A stretch of DNA of 24,000 nucleotides from Selenomonas ruminantium. GTDB taxonomy: Bacteria > Bacillota > Negativicutes > Selenomonadales > Selenomonadaceae. The DNA lies in the NCBI RefSeq assembly GCF_015058625.1, contig NZ_SVCA01000009.1, one strand, 5' to 3'. The notes under the pieces were generated by a model. It did no database searches. It had not been told where the DNA came from and saw only the letters and a list, made by a program, of their open reading frames with translations. This document shows, one piece after another, positions 5,200 through 18,061 of the stretch (positions within the stretch are counted from its first letter, which is position 1; every line of letters begins with the position of its first letter). Both the position numbers and the translations under genes were made by a program.

Positions 5200-6195
5200 A
5201 TGTATTTTTATTGTGAGAAATGTAAGAAACCATATCCGTTGAACACGCACTCCTATATCTGTGAGTGCGGGGGCATGTTCCGCCTGCATAAGGACCCGAT
5301 GGACGAAGTGCATAATGAGATTACACTGGGGGAAGTGGAGACGCCCTTACTGCCGTTGAAGGTGGGGAAACTGGATGTGCTGCTGAAATTGGAAAATCTG
5401 CAGCCTACCGGTTCCTTTAAGGACAGAGGTGCACATACGCTGATTAATGAAATCCATCATCTGGGCATCAAGAAGATTGCTCTGGATTCGGCAGGCAATG
5501 CCGGTGCTTCCATGGCTGCTTATGCCGCAGCTGCCGGGATTGAATGTACGGTTTATGTGCCGGATGATATTTCCCCGGAGATGAGCAAACAGATTGAGGC
5601 CTATGGTGCCAAAATCGTCAAGGTACCCAATGGACGCATGAGCACCTGTGCTGCCGTGAAGAAGAATCTGGGGGATGCTTACTATGCTTCCCATGTTTAT
5701 AATCCCTTGTTCTTTGAAGGGATGCGCCCGATGGCCAAGGAAATCTACAAACAGCTGGGCAACAGGATTCCTGAGTATGTCTTTATGCCGGTGGGCAATG
5801 GCACGATGATGATTGGCCTGTATTTAGGCTTTATGGAACTGGGTCGTCTGCCGCATTTCGTGGCCGTACAGAGCTCCAAGTGTGCACCGCTTTATGAGGC
5901 ATTCAAGGTGACGGATGAACAGCCGAAAAAGACTACCATTGCGCATGCTATCCGCATTGAACACCCGAAGCGCATCACGACGATGCTGGAAATCCTCAAG
6001 CAGACCGGCGGTGATGTGGTGACGGTTGAGGATGCCGAAATCCTCAAAGCCAAGAAATATTTAGGTTCCAAGGGCGTATATGCAGAACTGACTTCCGCCG
6101 CAGCTTTGGCCGGAGCCGAAAAGTTCTTTGCCGCAGGCAAGCCGGATAACTACAAGGTGGTTATTCCCATCACGGGCAGCGGGCTCAAGCGCTGA
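5200..6195 (+). CDS. Threonine-synthase-like PLP-dependent enzyme with N-terminal zinc ribbon
   Basis: The PLP lysine motif GSFKDRG and the PALP fold pattern (GNAGAS, PVGNGT) are present. An N-terminal CxxC...CxC ribbon (CEKCKK...CECGG) is also present. I prefer the start at ATG 5200 (RBS GGGGAGGGG 5-6 nt upstream). The ORF-track extension back to 5053 is AT-rich and lacks an RBS. Confidence 0.8.
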   Translation: MYFYCEKCKKPYPLNTHSYICECGGMFRLHKDPMDEVHNEITLGEVETPLLPLKVGKLDVLLKLENLQPTGSFKDRGAHTLINEIHHLGIKKIALDSAGNAGASMAAYAAAAGIECTVYVPDDISPEMSKQIEAYGAKIVKVPNGRMSTCAAVKKNLGDAYYASHVYNPLFFEGMRPMAKEIYKQLGNRIPEYVFMPVGNGTMMIGLYLGFMELGRLPHFVAVQSSKCAPLYEAFKVTDEQPKKTTIAHAIRIEHPKRITTMLEILKQTGGDVVTVEDAEILKAKKYLGSKGVYAELTSAAALAGAEKFFAAGKPDNYKVVIPITGSGLKR

Positions 6196-6227
6196 TTTTG
6201 CCGTAAACGTGTACAGGAGAAGAAGAT

Positions 6228-7136
6228 ATGCTGCATGGGATAATTGATATTGGATCCAACACCATTCGCATGGCGGTGTATCTCATTGAGGGCGGCCATT
6301 TTGAACAGCTGATGAAACGCAAGGAAACTGTGGGACTGGCTTCCTATGTGGAGGACGGCATTATGCAGCAGGAGGGCATAGACCGGGCGGTGGAGACACT
6401 GCAGGAATACAAGAAACTTCTGCAGTGTTTCAATATTACCCAGGTGGATGCTTTTACCACAGCGGCTTTGCGCAATGCCCAAAACAGCCGACAGGCCGTA
6501 GGGGAAATCGAAAGCCGCACAGGCATAAAAATCCGGGTTATCAGCGGTGACGAGGAAGCCACCCTGGATTTCATCGGCGCTACCCACAGCCTCAATAATG
6601 CCTCAGGGCTCTTAATTGATATTGGCGGCGGCAGTACGGAAATCGTCACTTACCGCAACCGTCAGATTCAGTACAAGACCAGCCTGCCCATTGGCTCCTT
6701 GAGCTTTGCCAAGAAATATGTGAGTTACGTCCTGCCCACAATGAATGAATGTCTGGAAATGTACGGTGAGGCGGAGGCTACCGTTGGGGCTGCTGCGGAC
6801 TTCATCAACATCTGCGAGGCGGAAATCGTGGGCATTGGCGGCACCTTCAAAGGGGCCTGCGCCCTGAATAATGAGCTCTTCAATCTTCCCGCAGCCAATC
6901 GGCGTCTGGAAACGAAAAATATCCGTCCCATTATCGGCAACTTCATCGGCGATTTGGGCATGACTCAGGAGATGGCTGTGGCGCTGATGCGCTCCGTGCC
7001 GGAGAGGATACAGACCATTATCCCGGGGCTGGTCATTGCTAATGTGCTGGCAAGGCGGTTTCAGAGTCACTGGATTACCTATAGTGACTCCGGGGTTAGA
7101 GAAGGGTATATTTACAGTCATATTATTGACAAATAA
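6228..7136 (+). CDS. Ppx/GppA-family phosphatase (exopolyphosphatase-like, single N-terminal module)
   Basis: It carries the ASKHA-fold signatures IIDIGSNTIRMAVY, ISGDEEA and LLIDIGGGSTE. Confidence 0.85.
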   Translation: MLHGIIDIGSNTIRMAVYLIEGGHFEQLMKRKETVGLASYVEDGIMQQEGIDRAVETLQEYKKLLQCFNITQVDAFTTAALRNAQNSRQAVGEIESRTGIKIRVISGDEEATLDFIGATHSLNNASGLLIDIGGGSTEIVTYRNRQIQYKTSLPIGSLSFAKKYVSYVLPTMNECLEMYGEAEATVGAAADFINICEAEIVGIGGTFKGACALNNELFNLPAANRRLETKNIRPIIGNFIGDLGMTQEMAVALMRSVPERIQTIIPGLVIANVLARRFQSHWITYSDSGVREGYIYSHIIDK

Positions 7137-10356: not shown

Positions 10357-10485
10357 TAAGAAGAGAAGCAGAGGACGGAACGGGCAGCCGTCGCCGGAAG
10401 GGGAAACCCTGATTAGGAGATGCGGGAATGTCACCCCGCCTATTCTCGAATTCGGATAGGAGTCGCTTAGCGGCTCCTATTTTTA
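10357..10485 (+). ncRNA. Candidate orphan structured small RNA (about 130 nt)
   Basis: A GC-rich segment contains several local hairpins (GACGG/CCGTC, GCGGG/CCCGC). It ends in a 10-bp stem (10456-10465 with 10471-10480) plus TTTT. No plus-strand gene lies downstream. Confidence 0.35.
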
Positions 10486-10500
10486 TGAAAGCAAATATAG

Positions 10501-10552
10501 AAAATGCCGATAAAAACAACAATACAATGCTGTTGTTTTTATCGGCATTTTT
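10501..10552. terminator. Bidirectional terminator (malic enzyme 3' end)
   Basis: A 21-bp perfect stem, AAAATGCCGATAAAAACAACA (10501-10521) with TGTTGTTTTTATCGGCATTTT (10531-10551). Confidence 0.85.
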
Positions 10553-10557
10553 GTACT

Positions 10558-11790
10558 TTACTTTTTCAACAGTTCTCTTGTATGTTCTGCCACCATTTCC
10601 GGGGTCATATTGCGGTTTCTGGCTACGCCGGTCTTACGGGCGGCCTTTGCAACGGCTGCGGCAACTGTTGGGGCTACTTCGGGATTGAAGGGGCTCGCTA
10701 TAATATGGTCTTCGTCCAGTTCCTCCGGTTTAATCAGGGAGGCAATGGCCTTGGCTGCGGCCATCTTCATTTCCTCATTGATGGTGCTGGCCTGTACGTC
10801 CAGAGCGCCGCGGAAGATGCCGGGGAAGGCCAGGAGGTTATTGACCTGATTGGGGAAGTCGGAGCGGCCCGTGCAGACGATTCTTGCTCCGGCTTTTTTG
10901 GCCAGCTGGGGCAGGATTTCCGGTTCAGGATTGGCCATGCCCATGACGATGGCATTGGGGGCCATGGTACGCACCATATCCTGCGTGACACAGCCTGCTA
11001 CGGATACGCCGATAAATACATCCGCTTTGCGGATGACGGCGTTCAGCGGGCCTGCCTCGTGGCTGGGATTGGTAATCCTGGCAATATCGTCCTTGTAGGG
11101 GTTCATGCCGTTGGGACGGCCTTCATAGATGGCACCGCGGGAGTCGCAGAGGATGATATTGCGGCCGCCGGCACTGTGAATCAGCCGCGTAATGGCCTGT
11201 CCGGCAGCTCCGGCACCATTGACCACGAATTTAGCCGTGGCAAAGTCCTTGCCCACAATCTTGAAGGCATTAATCAAAGCGGAAACCACCACAATGGCAG
11301 TACCATGCTGGTCATCATGGAATACGGGGATGTCTAAGGTCTTTTTCAGTTCCCGTTCAATATCAAAGCACTGGGGGGCCTTGATGTCCTCCAGATTGAT
11401 GCCGCCAAAAGATGGCGCCATGAGTTGTACGGCCTTGATGACCTCCAGAGGCTCTTGCGTGTCCAAACCGATAGGCACGGCATCTACGCCTGCAAAGCCC
11501 TTAAAGAGGATGGCCTTGCCCTCCATTACAGGCATACCCGCCTGTGCGCCGATATTGCCTAAGCCCAGCACAGCCGTACCGTTGGTGACCACCGCCACCA
11601 TATTGCCTTTGCTGGTATAGTCATAGGCCTTTCGCTTGTCCTCCTTGATGGCAAGACAGGGGGCGGCCACGCCGGGAGTATAGGCCAGCGTCAAATCTTC
11701 GGCACTGGTCAATGGCACTTTGCTGGCAACTGCCAGCTTGCCCTGATGGTCTTTATGCAGCTGCAAAGCCTGTTCATTTACATTGCTCAT
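10558..11790 (-). CDS. maeA: NAD(P)-dependent malic enzyme (short, about 410 aa type)
   Basis: The N-terminal LAYTPGVA, GTAVLGLGNIG, DDQHGTAIV and the dinucleotide fold VVNGAGAAG are present. The symbol is used generically. Confidence 0.9.
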   Translation of the reverse strand: MSNVNEQALQLHKDHQGKLAVASKVPLTSAEDLTLAYTPGVAAPCLAIKEDKRKAYDYTSKGNMVAVVTNGTAVLGLGNIGAQAGMPVMEGKAILFKGFAGVDAVPIGLDTQEPLEVIKAVQLMAPSFGGINLEDIKAPQCFDIERELKKTLDIPVFHDDQHGTAIVVVSALINAFKIVGKDFATAKFVVNGAGAAGQAITRLIHSAGGRNIILCDSRGAIYEGRPNGMNPYKDDIARITNPSHEAGPLNAVIRKADVFIGVSVAGCVTQDMVRTMAPNAIVMGMANPEPEILPQLAKKAGARIVCTGRSDFPNQVNNLLAFPGIFRGALDVQASTINEEMKMAAAKAIASLIKPEELDEDHIIASPFNPEVAPTVAAAVAKAARKTGVARNRNMTPEMVAEHTRELLKK

Positions 11791-15564: not shown

Positions 15565-16038
15565 ATGTCGCAGATGTCAATGGAAACGTTACTGGCCCTG
15601 CAGAATCTGGCGGCCAAAACATATAAGAGCAAGGAAAATAAACTGGAAACGAAAACGGGGGATGGCGAAAGCTATCAGGATATTTGGGCGAAGGTCAAAA
15701 AGGAGCAGGAAGAATGGGATAAGACTCTCAATGAATACGATTTGACGAAGTACAAGCTGGGGCTTATGGACAGCTTCTGGTCGGATAGCCGCAAAAAGAC
15801 ACAGGATTATATGTACAGCTACTATAAACGCCAGCAGCGGGCCATTAATCAGCAGTCGATTAATGAAATCGCCCAGAACATTGCCTGGCTTAATCAGCTG
15901 AACAACAGCGGGCTATTAAATGGTAGTATCGACACCGAAGCGGCGCAGGCTACCGGCAAAGCACTGAAAAGCGCCCTGCAGACTACGGTGCTGGCAAGCA
16001 TAAGGAACTTTCAGGTCAATTCGTTTTTGGGGATATAA
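15565..16038 (+). CDS. Hypothetical protein (157 aa, predicted helical, no recognisable domain)
   Basis: The ORF is open with normal codon usage. ATG lies directly after the terminator T-run. The only SD-like sequence (AAGGGGG) is the 3' arm of that terminator. Confidence 0.5.
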   Translation: MSQMSMETLLALQNLAAKTYKSKENKLETKTGDGESYQDIWAKVKKEQEEWDKTLNEYDLTKYKLGLMDSFWSDSRKKTQDYMYSYYKRQQRAINQQSINEIAQNIAWLNQLNNSGLLNGSIDTEAAQATGKALKSALQTTVLASIRNFQVNSFLGI

Positions 16039-16100
16039 GCAAAAAGAGATTGTGAAATTGCTGTTTGCCAATACGTGCTAAATTTTTTTGTTACAGCTCA

Positions 16101-16304
16101 GTTTGGGCGGAGGTGGTAATACTTTTCGCCGTTGCACTGAATGACCCACAAGTAAGTGTATGGGCTTTTTAGTTACCTGCGCCGGGCAAGACCGGCGGCG
16201 CGTATGTTCAACTCAACTTCTAGGAACTTTTTGTTTGTGGGCCAGTCCTCACTGCGTTCGGACAGTCGTTCCACGGCGAAAAGCATCACCACCTCCGCCC
16301 TAAG
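16101..16304 (-). ncRNA. Unclassified structured RNA, copy A (about 205 nt)
   Basis: A 28-bp closing helix forms between 16105-16132 and 16273-16300. Its two non-Watson-Crick positions are G-U only on the minus strand. Conserved internal blocks are shared with copy B. There is no conserved ORF. Confidence 0.55.
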
Positions 16305-16404
16305 CGATGTCCGTATAAGATGGCATTTCGCGGTGACAAGCAGCAAGTACATCGATGTTCTTGTTGCGGGAGCAACGAGTTCGTGGCAATAGTATAGGCC
16401 GTAA

Positions 16405-16610
16405 CTTGGGTCGGACGGGGGAGTGATTTTTCTGTAGGGAGCGACTGCCTGAACGCAGTGAAGGCCGGCCCCTGCGGAAATCAGCTAAGCAAATACGCTG
16501 AAAGCAGCGCCGTTGGCCTGCCCGGCGCGAGTAACTGGACAGCTCTACTTAACGAAGGGGTCGTTTAGCGGAAAACAGAAAAATTACTCCCCCGTCTGGC
16601 CCCAAACTAC
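16405..16610 (+). ncRNA. Unclassified structured RNA, copy B (about 205 nt)
   Basis: A closing helix of about 29 bp forms between 16407-16435 and 16575-16604. Its three non-Watson-Crick positions are G-U only on the plus strand. It is homologous to the reverse complement of copy A. Confidence 0.55.
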
Positions 16611-16661
16611 GTATGAACAAGATACCTTTACCACGAACTTCCCAACAAACTGCAATTTGCC

Positions 16662-16697
16662 AAAAGTGCGTTGACAACTTTTATGTCAACGCACTTT
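16662..16697 (-). terminator. Terminator downstream of the permease gene (usable on both strands)
   Basis: A 14-bp stem, AAAGTGCGTTGACA with TGTCAACGCACTTT, is followed by U4 on the minus strand. Confidence 0.6.
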
Positions 16698-16753
16698 CTG
16701 GCTGTTAAGGGGACTTTAATCCCCTGTATGTGTAGATGTCTGATATAGCTTTA

Positions 16754-18061
16754 TTATGCACGCATAATGAGATTTACGAGGAACGCCAGGCTGATTACGC
16801 CCATTACCCAGCTGACTTCTTTATATCTGCCGGTACATATCTTCAGCACAACATAGCTGATAAACCCAAAGGCAAAGCCGCTGGCGATGCTGTAGGTCAG
16901 CGGCATCATAATGATGGTCAGGAAGGCCGGTACGCCGTCGGTGAGGTCGGAAAAGTCAATGTCCTTGACGGAAGAAATCATCAAAGCACCGATGAGAATC
17001 AGCGCAGAGGCCGTCGCATAGCTGGGCACCAAGGCAATCAGCGGGGCGAACAGCAGCAGGGAGAGGAAGCCGAGCGCCGTGATGACGGCGGTAAGGCCTG
17101 TGCGGCCGCCAGCTTCAATACCCGTGGCGCTTTCCAGATAGGTGGTAACGGTAGAGGTTCCAACAAACGCACTGCCAATCGTAGCGAAGGCATTCATGGT
17201 CAGTGCCTTGTTGAGACCGGGGATTTCGCCATCTTCCTGCACCATATTGGCCCGGCGGGTCAGGCTGATGAGGGTGCCGATATTATCGAAGAGTTCCACC
17301 ATGGTAAAGGTGAAGATAATGGAGATAATCCCATAGTCCCAGGCACCTGCGATATCGAGCTGGACGAAGGAACCACTCACTGAGGGAATGTCGAAGCTGA
17401 TAATATCGCTGATACCGTGGGGAATGGGAGAATACCCCAGCGCCATGGAGAGCAGCGTGGTCACGCCGATGCTGATGAGGATAGCACCCTGCACGCCGCG
17501 CACCATGAGAATGACCGTGAGGGCCAGTGTGAACATGGCAAAGACAGGTGCAGGCTGGGTAACGTCACCGAGCGCCACAAAGGTTGACGGGTCAGCTTGC
17601 AGGACACCGGCATTTTTGAGACCGATAAAGGCGATAAAAAGGCCGATACCGACCGTGATGGCTGCTTTGAGTGTATCCGGTACGGCATGAATGATGGCTT
17701 TCATAATGCCGCCGCAGGTCAGAATCAGAAAGACAATGCCCGAAAAGAACACGGCACCGAGGGCCACGGTCCAATGCAGGTGCAGGCTGCCGCAGACGTA
17801 ATAGGAAAAGAACGCGGCAAGACCAAGCCCGGGGGCAAGTGCCACCGGGTAATTGACCAGCACACCCATAAAGAGGGTGGAAACAGCGGTAATCAAAATC
17901 GTAGCGGCGATGGATGCTTCCTGGGGCACACCCGCATCGGTGAGCATGTGGGGAATGACAAAAACGATATATGCCATGGCAATGAACGTGGTCAGCCCGG
18001 CAAAGATTTCTGTGCGTACCGTCGTTTCGCGGTCGCTCAGCTTAAATAGGCGGTCTAGCAT
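16754..18061 (-). CDS. NCS2-family purine permease (AzgA/PbuG-like adenine/guanine/hypoxanthine transporter)
   Basis: The N-terminus MLDRLFKLSDRETTVRTEIFAGLTTFIAMAYIVFV is characteristic of the AzgA subfamily. The protein has about 13 TM segments. RBS AGGAGG lies 4 nt upstream of the ATG. Confidence 0.9.
   Translation of the reverse strand: MLDRLFKLSDRETTVRTEIFAGLTTFIAMAYIVFVIPHMLTDAGVPQEASIAATILITAVSTLFMGVLVNYPVALAPGLGLAAFFSYYVCGSLHLHWTVALGAVFFSGIVFLILTCGGIMKAIIHAVPDTLKAAITVGIGLFIAFIGLKNAGVLQADPSTFVALGDVTQPAPVFAMFTLALTVILMVRGVQGAILISIGVTTLLSMALGYSPIPHGISDIISFDIPSVSGSFVQLDIAGAWDYGIISIIFTFTMVELFDNIGTLISLTRRANMVQEDGEIPGLNKALTMNAFATIGSAFVGTSTVTTYLESATGIEAGGRTGLTAVITALGFLSLLLFAPLIALVPSYATASALILIGALMISSVKDIDFSDLTDGVPAFLTIIMMPLTYSIASGFAFGFISYVVLKICTGRYKEVSWVMGVISLAFLVNLIMRA

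Follow-up and report, generated by a model that had tools for sequence, protein, structure and literature searches.

A two-armed, Correia-like repeat of Selenomonas ruminantium found in both orientations and carrying a conserved strand-specific fold

The Correia elements of Neisseria carry outward-facing promoters, have paired repeats at which RNase III cuts them, affect neighbouring genes and can invert (review PMC10969869, in which the BOX and ERIC repeats are also mentioned). The element considered here lies in a stretch of 24,000 nucleotides of Selenomonas ruminantium (contig NZ_SVCA01000009.1 of assembly GCF_015058625.1; the whole stretch is referred to as the window), between a gene for a protein of 157 amino acids (aa) and a permease gene, where a first-pass annotation had proposed a divergent pair of homologous structured RNAs. 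The reading we favour, with modest confidence, is that of a flippable repeat of 605 bp, similar in kind to Correia elements and to MITEs (miniature transposable elements with inverted repeats), in which two anciently diverged arms stand head to head and are read outward as structured RNA.

Like Correia elements and MITEs, the Selenomonas element is small, non-coding and interspersed, with terminal inverted repeats and many intergenic copies, present or absent from strain to strain, found in either orientation at a locus and often located directly upstream of genes, and, as with Correia elements, its predicted transcript would hold a long duplex suited to RNase III. It differs from the latter in being four to six times larger (605 bp versus 100-155 bp), in having its duplexes within each arm, as part of 205-nt multi-helix modules with conserved junctions, and not between the termini, and in possessing a strict A+B heterodimer and a palindromic centre, neither of which has a Correia counterpart; no target duplication of the TA type is seen in it, and there is no sequence relationship. 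By these comparisons the Selenomonas element does not belong to the Correia family, although the latter offers the closest working model.

Another system for comparison is the invertons (fimS, hin and the switches of Bacteroides and Clostridioides), which are likewise segments of a few hundred base pairs between short inverted repeats, asymmetric inside; they occur either way round between flanks that do not move, the exchange being located in the repeats, and are often positioned beside gene starts. In the Selenomonas element the asymmetry is that of the A and B arms and of the centre. In contrast, the Selenomonas element is a many-copy, apparently mobile repeat with neither a nearby invertase gene nor an identified promoter, and its change of orientation is known between strains. 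A third example is presented by the bcr-type, ERIC and BOX repeats (of the Bacillus cereus group, enterobacteria and pneumococcus, respectively), which keep a predicted RNA fold, partly by compensatory changes. These too are interspersed intergenic repeats whose copies keep their fold, but the Selenomonas element is two-armed and head to head, with a larger, multi-branched fold and invariant loops, and without sequence or Rfam relationship to them. As to known structured RNAs, the arms are similar to 6S and raiA RNAs in size (about 200 nt) and in the long closing helix, and to HEARO RNAs in a tie to mobile DNA, but they differ from all three in the lack of an Rfam match. When the 4227 models of Rfam 15 were run at gathering thresholds on the whole window and at E <= 10 on both strands of 16000-16760, no match to either arm was found in this interval at either setting, with chance matches to the flanking terminator hairpin alone, in agreement with the earlier failure to assign the pair to a known family. 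Nor was any description of the element family found in the searchable literature on Selenomonas repeats, on the plasmid pSR1 and on invertons. What makes the element unusual is the presence of two diverged structured modules per unit, the selection on the internal fold and the frequent flips between fixed flanks.

Repeat family, ends and orientation

At the window locus, positions 16055-16658 represent a single unit of 604 bp composed of an A and a B arm and edged by 13-bp inverted repeats (AAATTGCWGTTTG and CAAACTGCAATTT). Each arm holds a structured module of 205-225 nt. The two copies align end to end, as previously described (16090-16320, in reverse complement, with 16395-16625), but the inverted symmetry reaches 16055 and 16658, beyond the coordinates of the first-pass annotation, and the motif ACAAACTGCAATTT, about 45 nt outside each structured module, marks its outer limit. 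The palindrome ACATCGATGT at 16349-16358, previously recognized as the centre of symmetry, is the core of a 20-bp near-palindrome. The intergenic stretch, of 715 bp, comprises a tail (16 nt), the core (604 bp) and a two-hairpin cassette (95 nt), all of which are missing at empty sites. The parts are as follows (P1 to P5 denote helices).

16039-16054, + strand: tail of 16 nt, GCAAAAAGAGATTGTG, separating the left terminal repeat from the stop codon at the end of the 157-aa gene; the position of the tail is unchanged when the core flips
16055-16067, no strand: left terminal inverted repeat, AAATTGCTGTTTG; it holds at 16062 a locus-specific T, a variant base that keeps to the left flank in either orientation
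16055-16353, - strand: A arm, read outward, consisting of proximal 50 nt, structured module, 50-nt distal linker and terminal repeat
16087-16312, - strand: structured module of the A arm, recognized by covariance model R1 (214.9 bits), folds and pair counts
16102-16137 with 16268-16303, - strand: P1 of the A arm
16245-16263, - strand: P2 hairpin of the A arm
16235-16244 with 16142-16151, - strand: P3 of the A arm
16179-16184 with 16196-16201, - strand: invariant P5 helix of the A arm
16344-16363, no strand: central near-palindrome of 20 bp, CAAGTACATCGATGTTCTTG, the junction of the A and B arms
16354-16658, + strand: B arm, read outward; its proximal 50 nt, TTCTTGTnACGGGAGCAACGAGTTCGTGGCAATAG, are far more conserved than those of the A arm
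16397-16620, + strand: structured module of the B arm, recognized by model R1 (205.8 bits), fold and pair counts
16408-16435 with 16575-16602, + strand: P1 of the B arm
16447-16465, + strand: P2 hairpin of the B arm, with tandem G·A and a GCA loop
16466-16473 with 16556-16563, + strand: P3 of the B arm
16507-16512 with 16523-16528, + strand: P5 of the B arm
16646-16658, no strand: right terminal inverted repeat, CAAACTGCAATTT; homology between loci ends directly after it
16659-16753, no strand: two-hairpin cassette, a bidirectional terminator-type hairpin (16663-16697) followed by GGGGACTTTAATCCCC (16709-16724), up to the permease stop codon

This unit is one of many. In a pattern scan of one genome per species, in which copy counts are lower bounds, all 103 chunks among the matches listed were from S. 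ruminantium or Selenomonas sp. AE3005, with at least 5-16 loci per assembly in ten assemblies of the S. ruminantium group, and a further scan placed the element on 58 metagenome contigs. The divergent arrangement first noted in the window holds throughout: a minus-strand copy followed by a plus-strand copy, the two meeting at the centre, is found in almost every occurrence, and 40 of 40 complete units hold one A and one B arm (20 in the order AB, 20 in the order BA). The two types are well separated, as 181 of 194 arms are of pure A or pure B type and 3 are mixed, chimeras thus being nearly absent, while the sequence CGATGTnCTTG at the centre is about 90-100% conserved in both types alike. Conservation spans the central palindrome to CAAACTGCAATTT, about 300 nt each way, after which the similarity between loci ends abruptly. 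The 38 measured intervals represent 37 distinct units (one right end in locus L074 was matched to two candidate left ends), their length is 600-609 bp in 24 of the 38 and 597-615 bp in 30, and all 37 distinct complete units possess the terminal inverted repeats AAATTGCAGTTTG ... CAAACTGCAATTT at both ends. The copies have diverged from one another (65-98% identity, with a median over all arms of 79%), and same-type arms from different loci are up to 93-98% identical. Of the features that the first-pass annotation had expected of a MITE, many copies with conserved termini are thus found, and near-identity is not. Outside chromosomes, the sole relative in the plasmid collection is pSR1, an S. 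ruminantium record, which possesses a complete A arm spanning its HindIII junction, the central ACATCGATGT and a truncated B arm, flanked by genes different from those in the window. The phage collection gave no match to the element, and the metagenome scan gave none to the window's own left junction.

The flanking protein of 157 aa identifies the window as S. ruminantium, and a comparison of orthologous sites with and without the unit shows that it behaves as mobile DNA. The site is empty in three genomes, TAM6421, ATCC 12561 and one other (L110, L111, L112), where the convergent genes for the 157-aa protein and the permease are 0, 8 and 57 bp apart and nothing of the element lies between them, and both the 16-nt tail and the two-hairpin cassette are missing from such sites, while tails similar to it (CACAGYYCTTTWTTT) and similar cassettes are found next to other copies, the cassettes adjoining one end of most of them. 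The filled sites are those of the window, L114, L117 and L118, and Selenomonas sp. FC4001 possesses the element at the same site and in the same orientation as the window, with 88-90% identity.

The occurrence of the entire A-centre-B core both ways between fixed flanks makes the unit a flippable segment in its behaviour as well. In L118 and L117, whose flanking protein is 99% identical, the B arm lies by the 157-aa gene and the A arm by the permease, the reverse of the window, with the flanks, the 16-nt tail, the terminator cassette and the outer terminal repeat collinear, including the variant base of the left end (AAATTGCTG), and with the interior alone reversed, which places the exchange point within the 13-bp repeats. 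Among the 36 flanks common to at least two genomes, 15 are mixed, with the A arm next to them in some genomes and the B arm in others, and in one BioSample an identical 157-aa protein is followed by opposite orientations, the divergence starting exactly after AAATTGCAGTTTGT. The two contigs of the latter example are about 2.5% different in the flank and therefore come from different strains, without proof of switching within a clone; as elsewhere, the differences in orientation are seen between strains, that is, between assemblies. Homologous recombination within the arms was considered as the mechanism of the flip and rejected, because the arms are essentially never chimeric. The simplest reading is in-situ site-specific inversion, and this is what we infer. 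Orthologous copies carry too few substitutions for an informative pattern.

The conserved fold and its strand

The homology and the fold of the two copies are real and far beyond chance. In an alignment (A5) of 65 arms with mutual identity of no more than 91% the consensus structure contains 52 pairs, and 94.9% of the pair cells are paired, versus 42-51% with the partner column slid by 1-3 positions. Maintenance of the fold by compensatory change, previously proposed from the two copies alone, extends to the family, with 22 of the 52 pairs changing on both sides (402 cells), and the covariation score of 0.289, compared to 0.03-0.09 for partners slid by 1-3 columns, was matched by none of 500 shuffles, which ignore phylogeny.

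The individual helices differ in how they are maintained. The closing helix P1, whose two versions in the window are those previously recognized, comprises 19-26 pairs at the level of the consensus, is 28-36 bp long in single copies and contains ten covarying pairs. P2 is the hairpin GCCU-GA-AC[GCA]GU-GA-AGGC, whose internal loop is formed by tandem G·A and three of whose pairs covary; it replaces the hairpin ACUGC/GCAGU of the first-pass annotation. P3 pairs CGGCCC(C/A)... with ...GGGUCG and contains a conserved G·U, while P5, GCGCCG/CGGCGC, is invariant. This latter helix holds in the 65 homologues, as do the conserved blocks already visible in the two copies and the helix seen to covary between them (CCCACAA/UUGUGGG in one, CCCCU/AGGGG in the other). 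The pseudoknot proposed earlier, between the P5 loop and the P2/P3 region, does not survive this comparison: it is pairable in 93.4% of cells versus 93.2% with shuffled partners, and therefore gives no covariation signal. Junctions and loops are 90-100% conserved, examples being GGARCGAC, CUGAA, GCCUGCCC, GUARCU and GGGUCRUUUAGYG, and conservation is at its highest in these interior parts, some 50 nt in from the termini, and not at the element ends.

The fold has a strand. In all 65 arms the outward, or sense, strand folds more stably than its complement, the mean difference being 8.9 kcal/mol, and on this outward strand the non-Watson-Crick pair cells comprise 208 G·U versus 30 A·C, consistent with the asymmetry formerly noted on both arms of the window. 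For copy A the minimum free energy is -97.3 kcal/mol (z score -7.7) on the proposed strand and -90.7 kcal/mol (z -5.4) on the opposite one, and for copy B the respective values are -96.2 kcal/mol (z -6.0) and -86.3 kcal/mol (z -4.6). Covariance model R1, built from 65 family members, scores copies A and B at 214.9 and 205.8 bits in sense versus 34 and 31 in antisense, about 180 bits apart, and over the whole window finds nothing besides the two arms. Sequence comparison thus shows in both arms a strand-specific, covarying fold under purifying selection. Of the earlier proposal of a structured RNA pair, then, the homology, the fold and the strand stand; two independent genes starting from a central promoter do not, as the pair is a single repeat unit whose centre has no promoter consensus.

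What the arms may do

In the reading that we favour, the arms would be transcribed outward, from inside the element or within neighbouring transcripts, and would function as a cis-acting structured RNA, the P1 duplex of about 30 bp being a likely determinant for RNase III or for stability; where a gene directly follows, the arm would be its 5' leader, and the orientation of the element would set which arm faces which neighbour. Outward transcription is indicated, indirectly, at six loci in which lon and its terminator are followed by the A arm, the centre and the B arm, with the ATG of engB 22 nt on. This leaves no promoter room outside the element, and the engB transcript should therefore start in the element or traverse it, the sense strand of the B arm probably being the leader of this transcript. 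We infer that the arms are transcribed and act at the level of RNA.

A far-reaching extension of this reading, which we regard as speculative and rather unlikely, is that such elements represent mobile genetic switches genome-wide, in which a trans-acting recombinase flips the core bounded by the 13-bp repeats, choosing whether the A or the B RNA is read into each neighbouring gene or terminator, and in which dozens of loci, including that of the essential GTPase gene engB, would come under orientation-dependent control at the RNA level, or, alternatively, that the fold is an RNA cofactor for movement of the element.

A number of observations weigh against the reading of the element as a flippable repeat with outward-read RNA arms. 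Many of the double changes separate the A from the B type, and the independent covariation events are therefore few, while the wobble pair has a DNA counterpart, G·T, that is tolerated in folded single-stranded DNA as well. No conserved -35/-10 consensus of the sigma-70 type was found in the centre: the A-proximal 50 nt offer a weak TTaTCA-N17-TATACg alone, and the B-proximal 50 nt are highly conserved yet not promoter-like. The neighbour of an arm end is the 3' end of a convergent gene in about 60% of cases and a downstream gene start in about 40%, and there is therefore no consistent cis-regulatory partner. As to the mobility, no direct repeat that would represent a target-site duplication was found outside the termini in the 38 measured intervals (AATT, being palindromic, could hide inside the termini as such a duplication, and copy L008 has AATA at both ends), and neither an autonomous partner with the same termini nor lone termini were found in 727 kb of Selenomonas DNA around the copies. 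As to the flips, no recombinase gene adjoins the element in the window and no invertase was identified, and the A arm of L118 is about 91% identical to A arms at other loci versus 89% to the A arm of the window, from which replacement or re-insertion follows as an alternative to in-situ inversion.

Of the explanations that depart from this reading, the one that survives best, although we consider it a minority possibility, is that of an element acting at the level of DNA only, whose fold would form as single-stranded DNA or as a cruciform recognized by a transposase or recombinase, as at the ends of IS200/IS605, in integron attC sites or in single-strand origins, with the RNA being functionless. 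The mobile behaviour, the conserved termini and the orientation flips are what would be expected of such an element, as is the lack of a promoter consensus in the centre; attC sites are themselves strand-specific hairpins, conserved in structure and variable in sequence, and the excess of G·T over A·C is equally compatible with single-stranded DNA. However, the favoured strand is opposite in the two arms, which a divergent reading fits better than does exposure of one strand at a replication fork, the strongest conservation is in the internal junctions and loops and not at the termini, the internal loop with its tandem G·A is, like the invariant loop sequences, a motif typical of RNA, and at the engB loci the B arm would have to belong to a transcript.

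It is improbable that the arms represent two bona fide genes for trans-acting small RNAs, divergent from the centre and forming a multigene family. The covarying, strand-specific fold is compatible with such genes, and so are the lack of conserved coding potential and the terminator-type hairpin 2-6 nt beyond one end in 41 of 54 units, but small RNA genes would not be expected to occur as at least 5-16 A+B units per genome at intergenic sites unrelated to one another, each with the same sharp boundaries and with terminal inverted repeats, to be present, absent or flipped at orthologous sites, to lack a promoter consensus, or to be followed directly, in many copies, by a gene start and not a terminator. 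Least probable is a scaffold RNA for a trans-encoded enzyme of a mobile element (omega/reRNA for TnpB or IscB, bridge RNA for IS110), with a locus-specific 3' extension, read from the flanking sequence, as the potential guide: the multi-helix conserved fold does end about 50 nt before a sharp boundary and is read outward, and IS607-type TnpB and IS110/IS1111-type elements are present in S. ruminantium genomes, but no TnpB, IscB or IS110 gene lies inside the units or consistently beside them, there is neither similarity to the IS607 copy nor an Rfam match of the HEARO or IS605-orfB type, and the sole IS110-family copy seen (L030) is a secondary insertion into an arm.

Overall, the element family represents a MITE-like repeat with structure at the RNA level and not a stand-alone RNA class; it is well defined and open to experiment. 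If the arms are functional RNA, then the selected feature would be the internal fold, in two diverged copies per unit, and not the termini, unlike in other bacterial interspersed repeats; MITEs, invertible switches and large structured non-coding RNAs would be linked, and a cultivable rumen bacterium would offer a tractable system for the role of such a fold to a selfish element or to its host.

Neighbouring genes, variants and other observations

The central palindrome gives an ATG on each strand, and the possibility of a peptide starting from it was rejected, as the open reading frame (ORF) that follows is 1-71 codons long among 134 arms; with its length not conserved, the element is non-coding, in accord with the lack of a shared ORF in the two window copies. 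Gene starts are faced by 34 of 88 B arms versus 20 of 84 A arms. A strong terminator-type hairpin at a distance of up to 52 nt accompanies one end, and one only, in 41 of the 54 distinct units (27 times the A arm and 14 times the B arm), neither end in 13 and both ends in none. Next to most units a terminator hairpin (AAAAGYCCGYTGAC...GTCARCGGRCTTTT) belongs to a recurrent 3' cassette that also includes a small GGGG...CCCC hairpin (window 16659-16753; L024 2937-3020), and the opposite end of the unit often begins with CACAGYYCTTTWTTT or ATATGTR; these may be extended ends of the element or reflect a target preference.

The junction of the 157-aa gene and the permease (window 16039-16753; L110-L118 and L127) is a hot spot for insertion. 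Three genomes have nothing there, several carry the 605-bp element, two have four inserted genes (DUF4160, Mrr-like) and two an insert with an ORF for 109 aa. In L113 the spot is taken, at 6717-6915, by another hairpin element, palindromic over its whole length of about 200 nt (GGCACGGGGCGGGAGGTTTAC...GTAAACCTCCCGCCCCGTGCC; -122.7 kcal/mol, z -13). In ATCC 12561 (L111 6003-7905) an IS607-like pair, a serine recombinase and TnpB/OrfB_IS605, lies between the permease and a phosphotransferase system (PTS) gene, with no sequence similarity of this copy to the arms. In L122, L125 and L126 an identical 157-aa protein and the same A-arm junction are found, but BacA, an ORF for 128 aa and PGI, and not the permease, lie beyond the element, a change of the right flank due either to rearrangement through the repeat or to chimeric metagenome assembly.

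Individual copies vary. Longer variants, of 735-748 bp (L054 5380-5640; L073 3580-3840), contain two central palindromes with about 130 bp of degenerate arm sequence between them, which indicates recombination or nesting between units. The A arm of the flipped copy in L117 (2290-2400) is missing about 150 nt between the P1 strands (junction GGGCG|AAAAGTA), which shows that individual copies decay. In L030 (5211-6700) an IS110/IS1111-family insertion, with a transposase of 398 aa (5233-6429), is located exactly in the P2 loop of the B arm (GACTGCCTGAG^CGCAGCGAAGG), which suggests an insertion sequence targeting this repeat family.

The element family explains many of the contig breaks in S. ruminantium assemblies. 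The coordinates of the contig ends concentrate in the conserved P2 block, at about 118 nt from the centre; the breaks were considered as a sign of inversion within cultures, and this was rejected, as the clustering fits repeat-induced breaks. The family is worth masking or modelling in screens for non-coding RNA. GC-rich hairpin repeats of an alphaproteobacterial type, from a loose pattern scan of viral contigs, were likewise rejected as relatives, being different and fully palindromic, with 20 bits or less in R1 and no Rfam match. Prophages of an alphaproteobacterial type (L002-L005, from IMG/VR) contain, between genes, GC-rich repeats about 230 nt long whose closing helix measures 37 bp (AACCTCAAGCGCCGGGCG...); these have no Rfam match and no relationship to the Selenomonas element. 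Elsewhere in the window, a skipping-rope RNA (RF02924), the sole Rfam match in the window, is found at 10364-10446 on the plus strand, upstream of the ORF at 10504-11337, with 51.1 bits versus a gathering score of 36.7.

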